This document shows positions 3,174-23,388 of a stretch of 43,945 nucleotides of DNA, piece by piece (positions within the stretch are counted from its first letter, which is position 1; each line of letters opens with the position of its first letter). The position numbers and the translations under genes are program-made. The DNA is from Escherichia phage vB_EcoS_PNS1: sequence record NC_073063.1; one strand, given 5' to 3'. The notes below the pieces were generated by a model that was not told the DNA's origin, ran no database searches, and saw only the letters and a program-made list of their open reading frames with translations.

Positions 3174-3773
3174 ATGTCACAAGGTACAATCACACTAACG
3201 AACGGAAGTAAGACCGTAACGGGCGCTGGAACGGCGTTCCTTAGCGAGATCGGGAAGGTCCGCGTATTCGCCCGCATCGACGGCAACGACTACACCGGCA
3301 AAATAGCCGCATTCAACTCTGACACTGAAATCACCCTGGCGGATAACTGGGCCGGTCCAACTAAATCAGGTGCGGCATATGAGCTAATCGAAGCACACGA
3401 CCCGCGATCAAACGAATGGCCCTATTACTGGCACATGCAATTGCAGGGCGGCGGCGACGTGCAGTTGGCTTTCCGGTCGGAGGAATTGCAATTCGGTAAC
3501 GGTTACGGTCAGAACATCGCGGACGGCCCGAACGCCGAAACGAAACAGTTCCCCGTGCAATTCATAGGGCTTACTACTGACAAGTGGTGCAATCCCAAAC
3601 TGGTTTACAACTTCCTTCGCGGGCACTTCGTAAAGCCGTTTGTCGTCACCGCGCCGGATGGCGAAACCGGTTTATTCGTGGTCGAGCGTTCGAGCTTGTC
3701 GTACACAGACAACGGGCACTACACGGCAACGGTATCCGCAACCCTTAAAACTGCTATTGGATTCGTAAGATGA
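3174..3773 (+). CDS. minor/distal tail protein (lambda gpM position)
   Basis: First gene after tape measure; N-terminus shares a motif with the tail fiber at 10079. Confidence 0.6.
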   Translation: MSQGTITLTNGSKTVTGAGTAFLSEIGKVRVFARIDGNDYTGKIAAFNSDTEITLADNWAGPTKSGAAYELIEAHDPRSNEWPYYWHMQLQGGGDVQLAFRSEELQFGNGYGQNIADGPNAETKQFPVQFIGLTTDKWCNPKLVYNFLRGHFVKPFVVTAPDGETGLFVVERSSLSYTDNGHYTATVSATLKTAIGFVR

Positions 3774-4558
3774 ATAAACTATATCGTGAGGCGACGCGCT
3801 TTGACCCATCGGGCCGAGTTCGCCTGATTCATATTGACGCGCAGGACGTGGAGCCAGGCGACGGCGCGATCGGAGCGGGCCATCACTATTTTCATTACTG
3901 CTTTATCCCGCACACTGCCGAGGATATTGCTGCCGCTGGGGGTGACGAGGATAAGCTGAAGCCAAAATCCATCTTCTTCGGCGGGCAGGAGTTCGAATTT
4001 TGGCCCTTCGATCTGTCAGGCCTCAACTTCTCCACATCGACGGCAGCGGAACCGCAACTAACAATCGTCGATATTGGAGGCATAATCACCCGGCTGTCGC
4101 TGAATCACGACCAGCTACTGGGCGCGAAGGTTGAGATCATTGATACGTTCGCGAAGTTCCTGGACAACGGGACAGACCCAGACCCGACGCAGAAACGAGT
4201 TCAGGAGTATTACATCGACTCGCAGGTCGGGCGCAATCCAGGCAAGCAGATCACCTTCGCCCTATCCTCACCTGCGGATATGGAAGGGCAGGTCGTTCCC
4301 CGTCGCCAAATCATGAATATGTGCGAATGGGCGCTCAACGGGAAGTATGCCAGCGGTGACGGGTGTACGTGGAACCTTGCGCAGCCAGGCATCAAGTATT
4401 ACGACGAGCGTGGTAATGAAGTCATCGCGATGAATATGGACCGATGCGGCGGCTGTTTGTCCGACTGCTATCTTCGTTTTGGCCAGGGGCTTGCCGACCC
4501 GAAAGCTGCGGTGCTGGACTTCGGTGGTTTTCCAGGGTCCAAATTGATTAAGGGGTAG
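3770..4558 (+). CDS. minor tail protein, lambda gpL-like
   Basis: Synteny, plus C-terminal cysteine cluster (DRCGGCLSDC) as in the Fe-S-binding gpL family. Confidence 0.8.
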   Translation: MNKLYREATRFDPSGRVRLIHIDAQDVEPGDGAIGAGHHYFHYCFIPHTAEDIAAAGGDEDKLKPKSIFFGGQEFEFWPFDLSGLNFSTSTAAEPQLTIVDIGGIITRLSLNHDQLLGAKVEIIDTFAKFLDNGTDPDPTQKRVQEYYIDSQVGRNPGKQITFALSSPADMEGQVVPRRQIMNMCEWALNGKYASGDGCTWNLAQPGIKYYDERGNEVIAMNMDRCGGCLSDCYLRFGQGLADPKAAVLDFGGFPGSKLIKG

Positions 4559-10078: not shown

Positions 10079-11581
10079 ATGGCAGCGGGTACGCTCTCTG
10101 TAACGAATAACAGCAAGGCGGTTGTCGGGGTAGGCACGGCGTTTACCTCGTTTACAGCTGGCGACTTCTTAACGCTGGTGGTGGGGCAAGTGCCCTACAC
10201 TGTTGCGATCGCGTCCGTCGAAAGCGACACCGCGCTTACGCTTGTGCTGCCGTTCGACGGCCCAACGGCAACGGGACTCGCCTGGGACGGCATCAAACGT
10301 GACACCATGTCACTTGCAACGATGGGCGTGACCGTCCAGGCGCAGAAAGCGCTACGCTTGATGATGGCGGATGAAAACAACTGGCGTGCAATCTTCGGCG
10401 ACGCTGAAGAAATCACCGTTACGCTGCCCAGCGGGCAAGTTATGCAGGGTATGTCATGGGGCTACCTGTCATCCTTGCTGAAGGACGTTGACCCCGTTGA
10501 GATGCGCAACCTGCAACAACAAGCCACCGCATCTGAAGCCGCAGCGCAGGGATTTCGCGATCAGGCCGAGGAGTGGGCGAAAAGCGTAAATGCGGATAAT
10601 CTGCTAACAAAATCCGGCAACCTGGCGGGCCTGGCTGACCAATCGGCGGCACGCGTCAATCTCGGTCTTGACCGCCTCGAGCAGTCTACATATGACACTA
10701 GACTTTTTGACGCTTCAGGCGGCTATTACTTCTTTATTGCAGATTCTGATTGGGGGTGTGTCCATAATACTGCCCCGGATTATCCACGCATTGCGTTACC
10801 AGTAGCCAGTGGTGGAACTGGGGGAACAACAGAGTATTCAGCGTGTCAAAATCTACGTGCGCTCAACTGTGCCTATGATATCAACACAAATTACGGTTCT
10901 GAACAATTGTATACAGGTATCGGATTTTACGGCCGAGATGTGTCACCGCAGCCTGGGGGTGACGGCGGGCCTTTCGGCTGGGCCGAGATTATGACAATTG
11001 CGGAGGGGGGTGGTGGCCCTGGATCGGTGGGTAACTGGTCACAGATCGGTTTTTCCACTGCCGCCTCACAGGCCCCGCGCTACCGTCAACGCATAGCCAA
11101 CCCGGGGCAGGTTACTAACTGGCGGGATTTCTTAATTCGTGACCTAAACACCACTGTTGACAGCAACGGTTTTATTAAAATCGCATCCCCTATTGTGAAA
11201 ATCAAAGGTGACGGGACCGCAGAGTTTAACGACGAGTCCGAAGGTTGCTCTGTAACACGGGTGTCCAAAGGTGTTTATGTAATATCGGGTTGTCTGGGCC
11301 TCAATTCCGACGCGTCATGGGGCGGGGTCAATGGCGGCTTTGAGATACCGGTAGATGTAAACAAGCAACCTTTGTTGTGGCTGGATTATGAAGTATTGGA
11401 TGAGGGAAGTATTGAGATTCGCACCTACCACCGCACGCATACTAACGCGCCTAAGTTCGCGAGAAATATTATTGACGGTATCGAAGACGGCGATCCGATA
11501 GATATCCCACCAAGCACCTACATCTCTGTTAGGGTGCAAATGCCCACAACAGGATTGGAAACAGCCACGAGTAGTGCGTAG
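10079..11581 (+). CDS. tail fiber protein
   Basis: 500 aa Gly/Ser/Thr-rich protein downstream of J module; RBS agagga. Confidence 0.7.
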   Translation: MAAGTLSVTNNSKAVVGVGTAFTSFTAGDFLTLVVGQVPYTVAIASVESDTALTLVLPFDGPTATGLAWDGIKRDTMSLATMGVTVQAQKALRLMMADENNWRAIFGDAEEITVTLPSGQVMQGMSWGYLSSLLKDVDPVEMRNLQQQATASEAAAQGFRDQAEEWAKSVNADNLLTKSGNLAGLADQSAARVNLGLDRLEQSTYDTRLFDASGGYYFFIADSDWGCVHNTAPDYPRIALPVASGGTGGTTEYSACQNLRALNCAYDINTNYGSEQLYTGIGFYGRDVSPQPGGDGGPFGWAEIMTIAEGGGGPGSVGNWSQIGFSTAASQAPRYRQRIANPGQVTNWRDFLIRDLNTTVDSNGFIKIASPIVKIKGDGTAEFNDESEGCSVTRVSKGVYVISGCLGLNSDASWGGVNGGFEIPVDVNKQPLLWLDYEVLDEGSIEIRTYHRTHTNAPKFARNIIDGIEDGDPIDIPPSTYISVRVQMPTTGLETATSSA

Positions 11582-11587
11582 CGCTGG

Positions 11588-11618
11588 AAAAAGGGCCATA
11601 AGGCCCTTTTTTTTTTTT
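11588..11618. terminator. bidirectional rho-independent terminator between convergent operons
   Basis: Stem aaagggcc/ggcccttt flanked by A-run and an 11-nt T-run. Confidence 0.6.
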
Positions 11619-12192
11619 AGTTTGAGTTTTCCCAGTCCATTTTTCGCCGCACCAGTGGGCTTTCGTAATATTCCTTACCTTCAACTTCCACTAAAGGCCA
11701 ATCGTTCACGATCACGTATGGCTCTGCTATATCCTCAATAACACCGTGCGCGCTATGCTGCCCGAACGACACACCGACCAGAATAACACCGGCAACTCGA
11801 CGAGCAAGATACTCGCGAGCGCAACGTGCCTCGACCAGTCCTCGACGGATGCCGCTGGTGGCCTTAACCTCGTAGGCCCATACGGCATCGACCACATGCT
11901 CGCGGAAGTCGGGACCGGACTTCACCTTGCGCTTTCCAACCATGATAATATCGCCGCGGTCAATGGTGTTGGCACTAAACAGGCCGGTACGCATCAGTAA
12001 GCCTTGCGGGATACAACTACGCCCGCCAGCCTGACCCTCAAGGTACATTCCTGCAAACATCTCGCCCAGCACACCGACAAGACGGCTTTGCTTGCACGCG
12101 TCAGACTTTAGGCGCCACTGGTCAAACTCGATGCTTGCTATCATTGCCGCCAGATGGAATTGTTTACCTGATATTTCATATTCGCCGTACAT
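11617..12192 (-). CDS. hypothetical protein, possible PD-(D/E)XK-type nuclease
   Basis: 191 aa; GPD...x13...EVK arrangement resembles PD-(D/E)XK core; GAGGA RBS; last gene of minus-strand operon. Confidence 0.35.
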   Translation of the reverse strand: MYGEYEISGKQFHLAAMIASIEFDQWRLKSDACKQSRLVGVLGEMFAGMYLEGQAGGRSCIPQGLLMRTGLFSANTIDRGDIIMVGKRKVKSGPDFREHVVDAVWAYEVKATSGIRRGLVEARCAREYLARRVAGVILVGVSFGQHSAHGVIEDIAEPYVIVNDWPLVEVEGKEYYESPLVRRKMDWENSN

Positions 12193-12234
12193 CGTGTGGT
12201 CCTCATTGATGCGGGCCGAAGCCCGCGATTAGAA

Positions 12235-12726
12235 TTATTTCAGTGCGCCAGTCACCAGTGTTTTTTCCATGTTACGGAAGTCTTCCGGCGTAATAAGTAT
12301 TTTGGACCCATCTTCGCCGGTGAGCACGACCATAGGCTGGACGTCCTGGTCTACGACGCCGAAATTGGCGGCTTTGACAGTCTTGCCCGCGGAAGAATGC
12401 AAGCCTTTTAGGCTACCGTATTGCGCTGCCGTTGTATCGATCTGAATATCGTCATGCACTGTCATGTAAGACTCGCCCAGCAAGGCCGCATACGCTACCA
12501 GGTCGACGATGTTATCTTCCTGGTGCTTACGGTGCTGGCGCACCAGCTTCAGGCAGATCAGGAATGTCCAGGCTTCTTGCTCGGTAAGATCGCGCCCGGT
12601 AAGCGCGTTAAACACGGCGGCGATCTGTTTAGCGCTGCGTTCTTCTTTCGCGTTGTCATAGCCGTTTTCTTTCCCGCGCTGTTCCATAGTGGTGGCGGCG
12701 TTTTTGCAGTATTCGTATGCTTTCAT
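12235..12726 (-). CDS. hypothetical protein
   Basis: ATG at 12726 with AAGGA RBS; 163 aa; the ORF-track start at 12885 has no RBS and overlaps the upstream gene. Confidence 0.5.
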   Translation of the reverse strand: MKAYEYCKNAATTMEQRGKENGYDNAKEERSAKQIAAVFNALTGRDLTEQEAWTFLICLKLVRQHRKHQEDNIVDLVAYAALLGESYMTVHDDIQIDTTAAQYGSLKGLHSSAGKTVKAANFGVVDQDVQPMVVLTGEDGSKILITPEDFRNMEKTLVTGALK

Positions 12727-12778
12727 TATGTTTTCCTTTTTAGTGGGGGCGGTATTGCCCCCGACGTGATTAAGATAC

Positions 12779-12800
12779 TGCAACCAACCTATTGGTTGCA
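12779..12800. promoter_or_regulatory. palindromic operator-like site TGCAACCAA-N4-TTGGTTGCA
   Basis: Inverted repeat with 9-bp arms, upstream of the minus-strand gene starting at 12726. Confidence 0.4.
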
Positions 12801-13259
12801 AGTATATTTTGCAACGTTTATTGCGTAAATTTTCGGGACCAGATCGCCGCACGCCAGACGAATTGCCGCGATGTTCTTCTCGCAATCTTCAATGATGACC
12901 AGTTCCGACACGTCAGCATAGCAGACCATTTTGAACACGGCGCACGCTTTAAACTCTGGCGGCGGGGTGTCGTCCAGCATGTGGCGCATAAACAACCGCC
13001 CTGTCGGGAATACTTCCAGTTGCTCGGCGGTGGTGTCCCAACATTCTAGCTGCCGGTTTGTCAGATACGCGATCTCGAAGCCTTGCTCTTTGTACATGCG
13101 CAACAGCGGCAGCATATCCATGTTCAGGTCTTCGCGGACGTGCGCCTTGTGCCACTTCGCCCAAAAGGTGGATTTAGTTTTTATCCCCGGCACCAGGTCG
13201 GCGCGCGCATCGCTTGATCCATTAATAACGCCATCCAGGTCACAAATCAGTAATTTCAT
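12789..13259 (-). CDS. HAD-superfamily phosphatase / 5-prime nucleotidase-like
   Basis: N-terminal ICDLDGVI matches HAD motif I (DxDG); GAGGA RBS; translationally coupled to upstream gene. Confidence 0.7.
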   Translation of the reverse strand: MKLLICDLDGVINGSSDARADLVPGIKTKSTFWAKWHKAHVREDLNMDMLPLLRMYKEQGFEIAYLTNRQLECWDTTAEQLEVFPTGRLFMRHMLDDTPPPEFKACAVFKMVCYADVSELVIIEDCEKNIAAIRLACGDLVPKIYAINVAKYTCNQ

Positions 13260-13480
13260 TTCAATTCCTCAATCAAATTTGCACGAACAATACGGGCGGA
13301 AGACGTGTAACACACTAGATGCCAACGGGCGGTCATTACGAGCCAGCCGGTAAGATCCATCCCAAGCAATTGCTCGGGGCGGATAACGCGACGTACTTTA
13401 TTCTCCCTCAGGTTGATTTGGTAACGTTTAACAATTTCGTCCACGACGCGCAGACTGCGGTCAACGATTAAGATATTCAT
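13256..13480 (-). CDS. hypothetical protein
   Basis: Small ORF coupled (ATGA overlap) to the HAD gene; start taken at first ATG. Confidence 0.4.
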   Translation of the reverse strand: MNILIVDRSLRVVDEIVKRYQINLRENKVRRVIRPEQLLGMDLTGWLVMTARWHLVCYTSSARIVRANLIEELK

Positions 13481-13946
13481 GTAGCTCACTCTCGCTCATT
13501 ATTTCAATTTGTGCGCTGCCGATTGGTGGCGCTTCGTCAAAGATTATCAATTGCTGGCACTTGTTATTGCTCGGCCCGACTTCACCGGTGACCGCATGGA
13601 TGAATCGTACACGCCAGTCCAGAAGAATTATCAGGTTTGCAGTCTTCCGGGCCAACTTCGCCCACTTCGTCGACGTGTCCTGATTCAGTAGCATGACAGT
13701 CCGGCGTCCGTGCGCTGCACACTCGACCCACGGCAGCGGATCGGAATACGGCGGATTGCACCACTTCCACCCTTTCAACTCTGACCAGTCCACTTCAAGC
13801 GCGCTGTGATCTGCCGTGAAATAACGCGGTAGCAGATGGTTGGCGTCGCTTGCCGCCATGTCATAACGGAATCGGTACTTCCGGCGCAGCGGTTTAAATA
13901 AAGCTGGCGGCGTGCGCCAGCTATCTTTTTGCTCACTCTTCTGCAT
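13461..13946 (-). CDS. dam: DNA N6-adenine methyltransferase (phage Dam family)
   Basis: 161 aa with WRTPP...CNPPYSD (NPPY catalytic motif), typical of small phage Dam methylases. Confidence 0.85.
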   Translation of the reverse strand: MQKSEQKDSWRTPPALFKPLRRKYRFRYDMAASDANHLLPRYFTADHSALEVDWSELKGWKWCNPPYSDPLPWVECAAHGRRTVMLLNQDTSTKWAKLARKTANLIILLDWRVRFIHAVTGEVGPSNNKCQQLIIFDEAPPIGSAQIEIMSESELHEYLNR

Positions 13947-14397
13947 GACCTGGATCTATCGCGTATAAAGGGACTTTATTGCCGGTTTTCATAACGCGTT
14001 GGACGCGCTTCGACTCCTCGGCGCTCATTGGGCGCATATCAGTGCTGTAACCACCGTTTGATGTATGCCGCCACGCCATAAGCACCAGGTCTTTCCGGTC
14101 AATCTTAGACTGGCGGCCCTTCGGACGGACGTACTCCTCGGCCAGTTTGCAATGCTCGCGCAGACCTTCGGCAGTGATGCGGTTTAGCGCGACGGTGGTT
14201 GTGTACCCGGTGCGCTGCATAATACCCATCAACTCATACAGCAGTTCGAAGCGCTCCTCTAACTCCTTGCGCATCTTTTCCTCGCCTTCATAGCTCGCCA
14301 TGTAGGTATCCGCCAGCGCGTTCGCCCGTTCGACCTGTTCGCGGGCTTCGAGGCATTGCGCGGCCCAGTAATTTTTCTCTTCTTGTAAAATTTTCAT
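13933..14397 (-). CDS. hypothetical protein
   Basis: 154 aa, GGAGA RBS; hairpin plus T-run lies in its 5-prime leader (14412-14437). Confidence 0.5.
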   Translation of the reverse strand: MKILQEEKNYWAAQCLEAREQVERANALADTYMASYEGEEKMRKELEERFELLYELMGIMQRTGYTTTVALNRITAEGLREHCKLAEEYVRPKGRQSKIDRKDLVLMAWRHTSNGGYSTDMRPMSAEESKRVQRVMKTGNKVPLYAIDPGHAEE

Positions 14398-17395: not shown

Positions 17396-17674
17396 CTACG
17401 CGACCAATTCAGCAACCAATAAATCACAGTCGGCTATGTTGTCGATAACGCGAACGTCAGCACCGCGGCGGGCCATTCTCTCATGCTCACGTACCTGGTG
17501 CGGCTTCGGTTTTCCTCCTTGGCGCTTCACTTCGACGAACACTATTTTGCCGTTGATGATAATAATCAGGTCGGGCGCACCCGCGCGCCCCTCCCATGCC
17601 AGTTTTCGGCAGAATCCGCCGACCTCTTTCACCCGTTTCATCAGGTGACTTTGAATCTTGCCTTCTGGTGTCAT
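17396..17674 (-). CDS. VRR-NUC domain nuclease
   Basis: 92 aa from ATG 17674; D...EVK PD-(D/E)XK core in a VRR-NUC-sized protein; AAGGA RBS. Confidence 0.75.
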   Translation of the reverse strand: MTPEGKIQSHLMKRVKEVGGFCRKLAWEGRAGAPDLIIIINGKIVFVEVKRQGGKPKPHQVREHERMARRGADVRVIDNIADCDLLVAELVA

Positions 17675-18273
17675 TGTCGGCTTTTCCTTACGGCGGCGAT
17701 GGCAGGTCCGATAAACTTCTTCATTTCGTCCGGGGTAAACCGATCCCCGCGGGCTATGTTGCACTCTACGCAGCACGGCACGCAGTTATCTTTCGTATGG
17801 CCTACTGCGTTGTCGAGTCGGTCCGCGCCATTGTCGCCGGTGAATCCGCAGTATGCGCACGGCTGAGAAGTAAGGCGCAGCACGTCCTCTGTAGTAAGGT
17901 CGGTGTTTAGCCCCTTCCTTTCGTCTGCCTTACGGTACTGAAAGAGTTTATAGTAAGCGCGGATCTCTGGTGTCCGGTGGTTGTACTCACGGCGTGACTT
18001 ATTAGCGCACGATCGGCATTCTTTACGAATATGCGACCCGTTTGCTTGGCTTCCGGGCCGGAAGTTTTCCGGCGTGAGCGGCTTGCGCTCACCGCACGTA
18101 CGACATGTTACGACCTCCCCGGTGTACTCTCGCCATACTTCTCTCGGCGGCGCGCCTCTTTCCTTATCCCGTCTCTCTTTCTTATATGCCGCCATGCATT
18201 TGGCGCACCACGACTGGCCCTTGTTGAAAGCGGACTCATCTTTACCCGTATTACAACGCCCACAATGTTTCAT
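17671..18273 (-). CDS. HNH homing endonuclease with N-terminal zinc-ribbon repeats
   Basis: C-terminal CAYCG...DRLDN...GH...N...CVPCCVECN HNH-type motif; several CxxC pairs N-terminally; start at ATG 18273 with GAGGTG RBS. Confidence 0.75.
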   Translation of the reverse strand: MKHCGRCNTGKDESAFNKGQSWCAKCMAAYKKERRDKERGAPPREVWREYTGEVVTCRTCGERKPLTPENFRPGSQANGSHIRKECRSCANKSRREYNHRTPEIRAYYKLFQYRKADERKGLNTDLTTEDVLRLTSQPCAYCGFTGDNGADRLDNAVGHTKDNCVPCCVECNIARGDRFTPDEMKKFIGPAIAAVRKSRQ

Positions 18274-21722: not shown

Positions 21723-21965
21723 TCAAGCATTTTCATTAAAAAGATTCCGGGTCACGTAGTTGGTGGCGTTCTCGATCCAGCTTAACGGCGGGCGTTCGAT
21801 GTTCTTTTCCACCCAATCGACGGCAACTTCGCTATAGCCGTCATCCAGCCAGCGGGTCGGATGGCGAATCATCCACGCCACCATTAACACGCCTTGCACG
21901 CAATGCAGGATAAAGCCCAGCGCGCCGATCAAAAACATCAATAAGATTGCGAATACTTTATTCAT
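21723..21965 (-). CDS. small membrane protein
   Basis: 80 aa with hydrophobic N-terminal helix (FAILLMFLIGALGFIL); GAGGA RBS. Confidence 0.4.
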   Translation of the reverse strand: MNKVFAILLMFLIGALGFILHCVQGVLMVAWMIRHPTRWLDDGYSEVAVDWVEKNIERPPLSWIENATNYVTRNLFNENA

Positions 21966-23388
21966 TACTTAAGTCCTCGTCGGTAGCTTCGGACCACGCG
22001 GGGCGTGGGTCGTCTATAGGGGCTAATACCGGTTTAGCCGGTGCGCGCGTGATTTTATCACACAATTTCGCCCACACTTTCGGCTTCTCTTCCTTCAATA
22101 CCTTCTCGGCATCAGTAGGGCTGAGTAATGTTTCTTTGTACATAACATCGCGCTTGATCCGGGCCTTCGTGAAGATTTCAATCACTTCGCTTTCGTCCGC
22201 CCACTTGCGGATCCCTTCCTTACCGGCGACCATCTTGAGGCCCAGCGATTCGCCGTCGCCCGCCATTACCGCCTTGAATACCGCGTACTCGATAGCCTTG
22301 ATGTGCTGGCGCATTGCGTCCAGACCCTCATATGCCTTGCGCAGTTCCGCCGCGCTCATAGCGCCTGGTGCCGCTTCTTTCTTACCACGCTTCGCACGTC
22401 GTGCCGCTTTCCTGGCTTCGCGGGCCGTATTGCGGTCGTGATTGGCGCATTCTTCCTCTGTCGCGATACTCACGTCGTCTCCCAGGTCTTCGTCTGTTGC
22501 CGTTGGTGGGGTCATCGTGTCGATTGCGGCCTTAGCGCGGGCGCTACACTGATCCGCAAATCTGCACCACTGACACGCATCAACGCTCGGTCGGAAGTCG
22601 GCACGGGTGAGTCCCTTCTTGCCGCGGGCGTACGCTTCCAGGGCGGCGATAGCACGCTTGGACGCAAACTTCGCGAATATCTCCAGCGCTTCCACTGTAA
22701 TATCCCACTCCGATGCCCCGCCGCAATACGGCTGGAAGATGACCAGTCGCACGGTCGTAATGTCGTACATGGTTTGCAGCTTGCGCAGCAGGCCGAGCGC
22801 GTACAACATAAGCTGTTTGTTTTTTTTCGCCTCTACCTTATGTCGCCCGGTCTTCAGGTCGCCAACAATCAGCATGTACGTGCCGTCGGTCTTCTTCATG
22901 ACCATGACCATATCGGCAGTGCCGAACGTCTTAACCCGGTTGCCGTCGATCTCGAAGCCAGAGTGTAGGACGCGGGTAAGATCGGCGCGCATCTCAAGCT
23001 GGACAAACTCCGCCACTTCGAGAAGCGGTCGCCAGTGGTCAATGTACGCGTCGCACTGTTTCACCATATCGTCGTTGACCAGTACGCCGCCTTTCGGTGC
23101 TTTCGGGTGCGCCTTTACTGGCCCCTTGCCTTCATTCTCGACGTAACATCCTTTACACGTCTTTGCTGTTATCAGCTTTTCACCGGCGATAATGCGGTTT
23201 AGCACCACTTCAGATACGGTGTGCATACTCGTACCGTTAATCGCGGCTTGCCCGGATTCGTTCGGGATATCTTTTTCTACCACCAGGGCGGCGGGACACC
23301 CCATCCATTTTTTAGCACCTGATGGGCCAAGTAATGAGTGTTCCGTATTACTACCGGATTGCGTTTTACGTTTTGGTTTAATCGCCAT
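21958..23388 (-). CDS. PD-(D/E)XK nuclease, DUF2800/Cas4-like, with C-terminal cysteine cluster
   Basis: 476 aa; N-terminal SGSNTEHSLLGPSGAKKWMGCPA and CQWCRFADQC cluster; typical neighbour of DUF2815 and PolA in phage replication modules. Confidence 0.75.
   Translation of the reverse strand: MAIKPKRKTQSGSNTEHSLLGPSGAKKWMGCPAALVVEKDIPNESGQAAINGTSMHTVSEVVLNRIIAGEKLITAKTCKGCYVENEGKGPVKAHPKAPKGGVLVNDDMVKQCDAYIDHWRPLLEVAEFVQLEMRADLTRVLHSGFEIDGNRVKTFGTADMVMVMKKTDGTYMLIVGDLKTGRHKVEAKKNKQLMLYALGLLRKLQTMYDITTVRLVIFQPYCGGASEWDITVEALEIFAKFASKRAIAALEAYARGKKGLTRADFRPSVDACQWCRFADQCSARAKAAIDTMTPPTATDEDLGDDVSIATEEECANHDRNTAREARKAARRAKRGKKEAAPGAMSAAELRKAYEGLDAMRQHIKAIEYAVFKAVMAGDGESLGLKMVAGKEGIRKWADESEVIEIFTKARIKRDVMYKETLLSPTDAEKVLKEEKPKVWAKLCDKITRAPAKPVLAPIDDPRPAWSEATDEDLSNE

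Follow-up and report, generated by a model that had tools for sequence, protein, structure and literature searches.

The last three genes of the leftward replication operon of Escherichia phage vB_EcoS_PNS1 (NC_073063.1), which we call gA, gB and gC, are best read as a conserved accessory tail of that operon, encoding an active nuclease (gA), a protein with the DUF6378 domain (gB) and a HAD phosphatase (gC) as three separate soluble proteins. We give this reading a probability of roughly 55%. The window is the whole stretch of DNA that we analyzed, 43,945 bp long. The original prediction for this region placed three coupled genes at 11617-13259, at the distal end of the operon, and saw in them one nucleotide-metabolism or DNA-processing unit. 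All three minus-strand open reading frames (ORFs) are found there, gA at 11617-12192 (191 aa), gB at 12235-12726 (163 aa from its ATG) and gC at 12789-13259 (156 aa), and they are the last genes before a bidirectional intrinsic terminator at 11586-11613; the observation itself is confirmed. Overall, the interpretation is partly supported: it was largely right for the protein families. The three proteins are uncharacterised members of known enzyme or protein kinds, and none of them is a new kind.

More than 150 phage records match the 2.1-kb region around the three genes at 88-92% nucleotide identity, and almost all of them are Dhillonviruses of E. coli or Shigella. Dhillonviruses are HK578/SO-1-like siphoviruses with genomes of about 44 kb, and the length and gene order of the window agree with a complete Dhillonvirus genome. 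Two of the matching records carry other host names ('Acinetobacter phage NJ01', OQ221563.1, and 'Campylobacter phage A144', MG065648.1) and are 88-91% identical to E. coli Dhillonviruses here, so their hosts look doubtful. The three genes are near-universal in the genus, with gA, gB and gC present in about 156, 154 and 151, respectively, of about 156 Dhillonvirus records, and the count for gA is the same as the number of records with a DNA polymerase at least 90% identical. The ratio of nonsynonymous to synonymous substitution rates (dN/dS) against relatives is 0.03-0.08 for gA and gC, and the first 90 codons of gB have dN = 0 and dS = 0.29. Given this low dN/dS, together with homologues found down to 25-37% identity and a Shine-Dalgarno sequence about 8 nt upstream of each gene, these are real genes under strong purifying selection and not chance ORFs. 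A longer ORF for gB, 216 aa from a TTG start, was rejected; it overlaps gC and is contradicted by the homologues, which start with MKA. The operon, which the original prediction called early, runs leftward on the minus strand from about 24.6 kb down to 11.6 kb and is a replication and DNA-metabolism operon. It has an SNF2-type helicase, a family A DNA polymerase (PolA), an Enc34-type single-stranded DNA-binding protein, nucleases and a Dam-type methyltransferase and, going by the annotation of relatives, also a cytosine (C5) methyltransferase and an HNH protein.

The gA family is very small. Its sole family match is phrog_10558, of unknown function, the protein has no sequence match in Pfam, NCBIfam or the PDB, and Pfam searches with 14 family members gave nothing credible, with just scattered, unrelated single-member matches at E up to 1. 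A collection of 5.8 billion proteins holds six clusters of the family at 90% identity, and 13 homologues are found at E up to 0.001 among 1.84 billion representatives at 50% identity. In an alignment of the 14 members, which reaches down to 24% identity, twelve positions are invariant, including the predicted catalytic residues E44 (12061-12063), D81 (11950-11952), E108 (11869-11871) and K110 (11863-11865), all encoded, like the features of gB, gC and the two genes upstream of gC described below, on the minus strand. The AlphaFold2 model built on this alignment has a predicted local distance difference test score (pLDDT) of 91.9 and a predicted template modelling score of 0.87, and in it E44 falls on a long helix (31-54), D81 opens a strand (82-92) and E108-x-K110 belongs to the next strand (97-112). 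The predicted core is alpha-beta-beta-beta-alpha-beta, as in the restriction-endonuclease-like fold, and the alignment and the secondary structure of the model together give the catalytic constellation of an acidic residue on helix alpha-1, an aspartate on beta-2 and (D/E)-x-K on beta-3. This bears out the earlier description of gA as a PD-(D/E)XK-like protein; the outcome that was to refute it, a failure to detect this fold, did not occur. That description had pointed to a GPD...EVK arrangement; SGPD (94-96) and EVK (108-110) are indeed present, but the motif aspartate is D81 (in RGD-I) and not D96, which varies even in close relatives.

Structure searches point in the same direction. Foldseek of the gA model against the PDB found nothing significant, but its best match was R.SwaI (E=0.05) and the other top matches were also nucleases. 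Against predicted viral structures, the matches were uncharacterised phage proteins 140-200 aa long, of which two carry the label restriction endonuclease. On the basis of the model we conclude that gA has a predicted restriction-endonuclease fold with a complete catalytic constellation and without a close characterised relative, and it is most likely an active metal-dependent PD-(D/E)XK endonuclease. We also note that gA would be the third protein of the PD-(D/E)XK superfamily in one 44-kb genome, after a VRR-NUC nuclease (126 aa, 17396-17776) and a DUF2800/PDDEXK_1 exonuclease (476 aa, 21958-23388), both on the minus strand in the same operon.

The gene context of gA is similar in more distant phages. 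Homologues at 29-37% identity sit at or near the end of an operon of primase, methyltransferase and replication genes in several unrelated groups of siphophages and podophages, including Klebsiella T1-like phages. In most loci examined the homologue is the last gene before a lysis cassette or convergent tail genes; in one locus (L099) two small ORFs follow it. Most of these operons have a DNA methyltransferase (Dam, MT-A70 or N6_N4) upstream of the gA homologue, which is compatible with a nuclease limited by phage methylation and equally with simple adjacency of modules. A close relative is annotated with endonuclease VII, and at the locus of one distant gA homologue RusA is encoded two genes upstream of it, a single small ORF separating them. 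Because the operon has the VRR-NUC and DUF2800/PDDEXK_1 proteins and gA-bearing relatives have RusA or endonuclease VII, gA is not needed as a resolvase or recombination exonuclease and is probably neither. A homing endonuclease of the I-Ssp6803I type is also disfavored. In Dhillonviruses the gene sits at one fixed position, in about 156 of about 156 records; relatives at 55-77% identity keep its synteny, and it stands free at the end of the operon with no intron or intein context, all of which count against homing, and we reject that reading because of this distribution and the selection on gA.

The original prediction had assigned gC to the HAD phosphatases from motif I (DxDG). CDLDGV is present, and all four HAD motifs are found: motif I, D7-x-D9 (13233-13241); motif II, T67-N-R69 (13053-13061); motif III, K104 (12948-12950); and motif IV, E124-D125 (12885-12890). 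Among 13 homologues down to 41% identity, D7, D9, R19, R69, K104 and D125 are invariant, and residue 67 is either Thr or Ser. Between motifs I and II lies an insert (LVP..W..WHKAH..E) in which L22-V-P24, W33, W36-H-K38, H40 and E43 are invariant in the same homologues. The protein matches phrog_415, labelled "polynucleotide kinase", at E=4.8e-34, and has weak matches to HAD families in Pfam, NCBIfam and the PDB. The best solved relatives of the family profile are the Pnkp1 phosphatase domain (4xrp, E=0.002) and a class B acid phosphatase (2i33, E=0.005), and the Pfam model Acid_phosphat_B (PF03767) scores 22.6 bits, under its cut-off of 27 bits. With hhalign, the match to T4 Pnkp (pseT) is local, covering gC residues 42-76 on T4 residues 186-220 with a probability of 32% (E=4.7e-4). 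It puts T67-N-R69 on T4 S211-G-R213, and R19 corresponds to R176 by spacing alone; R176 and R213 are essential arginines of T4 Pnkp.

Based on these motifs, gC is, as far as its sequence tells, a stand-alone cytoplasmic HAD phosphomonoesterase of the minimal-cap subfamily III type. It lacks a signal sequence, because it starts MKLLICDLDG with motif I at residue 7, leaving no room for a signal peptide or a lipobox. The Trp/His-rich insert probably contacts a nucleobase; its aromatic residues would suit base stacking whether gC acts on 3'-phosphates of nucleic acid or on free nucleotides. Neither gC nor the neighboring ORFs have a kinase domain, and no ligase is encoded in the window. The label "polynucleotide kinase" can be ruled out for this 156-aa protein because it has no kinase domain. 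A reading as RNA repair by Pnkp and a ligase was likewise rejected; there is no kinase, and the "DNA ligase" PHROG label in this region belongs to the anti-Tmn protein described below.

The protein that the original prediction listed as unknown, gB, carries Pfam DUF6378 (PF19905) on residues 16-85, at 39.6 bits against a cut-off of 27.1, and 15 of 16 aligned relatives match the same domain. The domain (aa 1-88, 12463-12726) is predicted to form four helices in a low-confidence model, and is followed by an indel-rich linker (about aa 89-128, ~12343-12462) and then by some 35 conserved residues at the C terminus (~12238-12342). The AlphaFold2 model is poor (pLDDT 43), probably because the alignment is gappy and consists mostly of near-identical sequences. 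Across 19 lineages of phage and viral contigs, R17, D24, E29, W53, L59, K60, R63, D71, D75, L82 and E85 of DUF6378 are invariant, and this set of acidic and basic residues suggests that the domain may bind a ligand or nucleic acid. Within the Dhillonviruses gB is 130 to 199 aa long, owing to variation in the linker between the domain and the C-terminal segment. Between otherwise near-identical phages the linker goes from about 0 to about 70 residues with conserved flanking domains (homologues P0020-P0117), and in some relatives it holds a duplicated EIQIDTTAAQFDSLKG segment. No tandem repeats that could be a source of the length variation are present in the window.

DUF6378 proteins are widely annotated 'phosphofructokinase' through PHROG 474/1167 (records H95, H102, H106, H109 and H113), a label with no sequence support. 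Their gene context points instead to DNA or nucleotide metabolism, possibly together with Dam. In 43 lambdoid-like loci on viral contigs of about 54 kb (L013 and 42 similar loci), a gene for a PF05869 Dam methyltransferase stands immediately before the DUF6378 gene. In lambdoid-like phages and prophages (the L013 group and L030), the DUF6378 gene and the preceding Dam gene share overlapping codons, and two genes downstream of DUF6378 in the lambdoid-like loci there is a 252-aa protein with no Pfam match that resembles a cytosine methyltransferase. In other phages the DUF6378 gene follows a dCTP deaminase gene or lies between ThyX and NrdD; further neighbors are a PRA-PH/MazG-like protein, a DHH phosphoesterase, a DUF1064 protein, PolA and a PD-(D/E)XK protein, and a published Faecalibacterium phage has the order Dam-ThyX-DUF6378. 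The dCTP deaminase, ThyX and PRA-PH-like neighbors prompted us to consider a MazG-like or dUTPase-like function for DUF6378, which was not supported. DUF6378 and MazG/PRA-PH show no Pfam cross-match at E up to 1, and when the DUF6378 profile of 19 lineages was aligned by hhalign to two neighbor proteins of the MazG/PRA-PH-like type, the probability was 0.1%, with single-sequence templates that very remote homology could escape. Profile searches of the PDB gave no match.

Whether the three genes form a unit has a mixed answer. Relatives at 55-58% identity retain the order Dam, Ksap1-like, HAD, (small ORF), DUF6378, gA. Two additional groups of phages, with gA at 36-37% identity, have an unambiguous homologue of gC (hhalign probability 99.5%) four genes ahead of gA; the intervening genes differ and none of them is DUF6378. 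In total, gC and gA homologues co-occur in four phage groups, with gC upstream of gA. Because the gC homologue lies upstream of gA in those two distant groups, the phosphatase-nuclease pairing is older than the genus, and the DUF6378 gene is a lineage-specific tenant. As a claim about one unit, the original prediction holds only in part: the phosphatase and the nuclease recur together, but DUF6378 is an inconstant partner. Nor are the genes translationally coupled in the window: the gaps are 62 nt between gC and gB and 42 nt between gB and gA, each with a conserved stem-loop. In a diverged relative (L005), the gB and gA homologues overlap by 4 nt.

One further arrangement was seen in a diverged Dhillonvirus contig (L027, IMGVR_UViG_3300045988_003101), where ksap1 and gC are absent and positions 3485-4531 encode an in-frame Dam::DUF6378 fusion of 348 aa. 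This variant could be a deletion that escapes Avs2, a hint of a link between Dam and DUF6378, or an assembly artefact.

In the reading that we favor, an accessory tail of the replication operon, the three genes would be transcribed together with the replication genes, with conserved RNA hairpins between them. E44 on helix alpha-1, D81 on beta-2 and E108-x-K110 on beta-3 of gA would form a metal-dependent active site. In gC, D7 would be the nucleophile and D9 the general acid/base, T67, R69 and K104 would bind phosphate, and E124/D125 would bind Mg2+. gB would consist of a helical DUF6378 domain, a flexible linker and a small C-terminal segment. The nuclease and the phosphatase might then serve a common pathway with nucleic acid or nucleotides as its substrates, with gA cutting DNA, most plausibly host or other non-phage DNA since other genes of the operon already supply nucleases for recombination and replication, and gC dephosphorylating the resulting ends or mononucleotides.

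Several points weigh against this reading. PD-(D/E)XK nucleases leave 5'-phosphate and 3'-OH ends, and because such ends give a 3'-phosphatase no obvious task, the pathway link between gA and gC is weak. The Dhillonvirus-like contig L027 keeps gB and gA without the phosphatase, and N4-like phages have the phosphatase without gA, which speaks against strict dependence of one on the other. The genes between phosphatase and nuclease differ by group, so their co-occurrence may mirror a shared position of modules. Finally, in the literature searched, no paper gives gA, gB or gC a function, activity, substrate or phenotype.

The best-placed alternative, which we nevertheless consider unlikely, is that the region is an island for anti-defence or host interaction and not for nucleotide metabolism. 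Under this alternative, gA would degrade a nucleic acid used in host defence, or else serve as a decoy or a trigger; gC would take the phosphate off a signalling nucleotide or off an RNA end damaged by a toxin; and gB, whose linker is hypervariable, would bind a host factor. It draws its appeal from the adjoining upstream genes. Directly upstream of gC is a homologue of Ksap1 (13256-13489; 74-aa form from 13480), whose stop overlaps the gC start codon (ATGA). Ksap1 of SECphi18 is a 74-aa protein that directly binds and activates KpAvs2, the Klebsiella Avs2 sensor, and mutation of L47 or T50 leads to escape (PMC11564622); the copy in the window is 57% identical to the SECphi18 protein and retains both residues. 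Further upstream (13933-14397) lies a gene for a 154-aa protein that is 81% identical to ORF35 of phage SM_S22, published as an anti-Tmn protein (PMC11846954). This family is called 'DNA ligase' in PHROG 10530 and in a number of GenBank records, an apparent misannotation. The Dam and C5 methyltransferases of the same stretch, the large length changes of the gB linker between near-identical phages, and the natural deletion that takes out ksap1 together with gC would also fit such an island.

However, the search with PADLOC defence models gave a single, non-significant match, gA against TmtA at E=0.024, and gA, gB and gC differ from the patchy anti-Tmn gene in being near-universal and strongly constrained by purifying selection. 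None of the escape-mutant studies reviewed maps to any of the three genes. The Ksap1 study names the homologue of gC 'phosphatase' (PMC11564622), and neither it nor the anti-Tmn paper (PMC11846954) gives a role to gA, gB or gC.

A more ambitious version of the pairing, which we hold to be rather improbable, is that the HAD phosphatase and the phrog_10558 nuclease are an undescribed two-enzyme phage system in which variable middle genes, such as DUF6378, serve as adaptors. If true, it might, for example, selectively destroy DNA that lacks the phage Dam/C5 methylation and reuse what is released, or break down a nucleic acid on which a host defence depends. As a separate idea, held with the same reserve, DUF6378 might be a partner subunit of the PF05869 Dam methyltransferase, a partnership suggested by the in-frame Dam::DUF6378 fusion and by the position of Dam immediately before DUF6378 in the 43 lambdoid-like loci. 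The remaining alternative, in which gA would be a structure-specific endonuclease (an Hjc-like junction or flap resolvase) for replication, recombination or packaging and gC a Pnkp-like end-healing 3'-phosphatase, is equally doubtful: the phage and its relatives already have VRR-NUC, endonuclease VII or RusA, and a RecB-like exonuclease, the phage has neither a kinase domain nor a ligase (the phrog_10530 'DNA ligase' being the anti-Tmn protein), and the alignment that relates gC to T4 Pnkp is the local, low-probability one given above.

The gaps between the three genes contain conserved RNA hairpins, which are distinct from the terminator at the end of the operon. At the end of gC is a 9-bp stem-loop, TGCAACCAA-TAGG-TTGGTTGCA (12779-12800, minus strand), with the gC stop codon in the loop; the stem is kept in all aligned Dhillonvirus loci, and one locus alters the loop only. 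Upstream of the gB ribosome-binding site is a G+C-rich stem-loop, GGGGGC-AATACC-GCCCCC (12745-12762, minus strand), whose stem shows compensatory changes in relatives (e.g. GGGAGGC...GCCTCCC and GGGGC...GCCCC). Between gB and gA is a nearly invariant tetraloop hairpin, GCGGGC-UUCG-GCCCGC (12211-12226, minus strand). None of the intergenic hairpins is followed by a U-tract, and for this reason the G+C-rich stem-loop at 12745-12762 is not an intrinsic terminator. Rfam searches with the hairpins gave sub-threshold noise only, and with neither U-tracts nor an Rfam match we rejected them as terminators or known RNAs. The three hairpins may be elements that stabilise or process the mRNA. The bidirectional terminator at 11586-11613 has a 12-bp stem with A and T runs and compensatory variation in relatives, and is common to gA and the convergent tail-fibre gene (10079-11581, plus strand).

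Dhillonviruses are common E. coli phages, found in therapy collections and used in immunity models (SECphi4/6/18 and the BASEL phages), and the three genes are already public as "hypothetical protein" in more than 150 genomes. Knowing that the last gene of the operon probably encodes an active nuclease, to judge from its modelled fold, from a family without a Pfam model is of practical use. The segment from gA to gC adjoins two genes that are known to determine whether Avs2 and Tmn defence succeeds, and the labels "polynucleotide kinase", "phosphofructokinase" and "DNA ligase" are misleading here, which matters for annotation and for the design of deletion mutants. The phosphatase-nuclease pairing and the association of Dam with DUF6378 are leads that are cheap to test; they do not overturn current understanding.

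Compared with known systems, the closest in position are Ksap1 (PMC11564622) and the anti-Tmn protein (PMC11846954), which share the operon segment with gA, gB and gC but have no homology to them.

For gC, the comparison is with the C-terminal domain of T4 Pnkp and with Capnocytophaga Pnkp1 (4xrp), which share with it the DxDG nucleophile motif, the S/T-x-R motif II, the motif III lysine, the acidic pair of motif IV and little or no cap. In contrast to T4 Pnkp, gC has no 5'-kinase domain and no partner ligase, its insert between motifs I and II is 14 residues longer and Trp/His-rich, and the similarity is marginal. The class B acid phosphatases and e(P4) 5'-nucleotidases (PF03767; 2i33) have the same HAD subfamily III architecture, and their profile aligns over motifs I and II, but gC scores below the Pfam cut-off, lacks a secretion signal and is half as long.

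Small PD-(D/E)XK nucleases, namely I-Ssp6803I (2ost), archaeal Hjc (2wcw, 1gef), SSV1 D212 (2w8m) and the type II restriction enzymes NhoI, MspI and SwaI, resemble gA in its predicted core, the acidic residue of helix 1, the Asp at the start of beta-2, the beta-3 ExK and the small single-domain size. Identity to these nucleases is 6-16%, with no profile-level similarity to any of them, and gA carries additional elements at its N terminus (aa 1-30) and its C terminus (aa 157-191). Finally, gB shares all of the invariant residues of the DUF6378 family (PF19905, PHROG 474/1167), and in the Dhillonviruses it adds to the family plan a variable linker and a genus-specific C-terminal segment.

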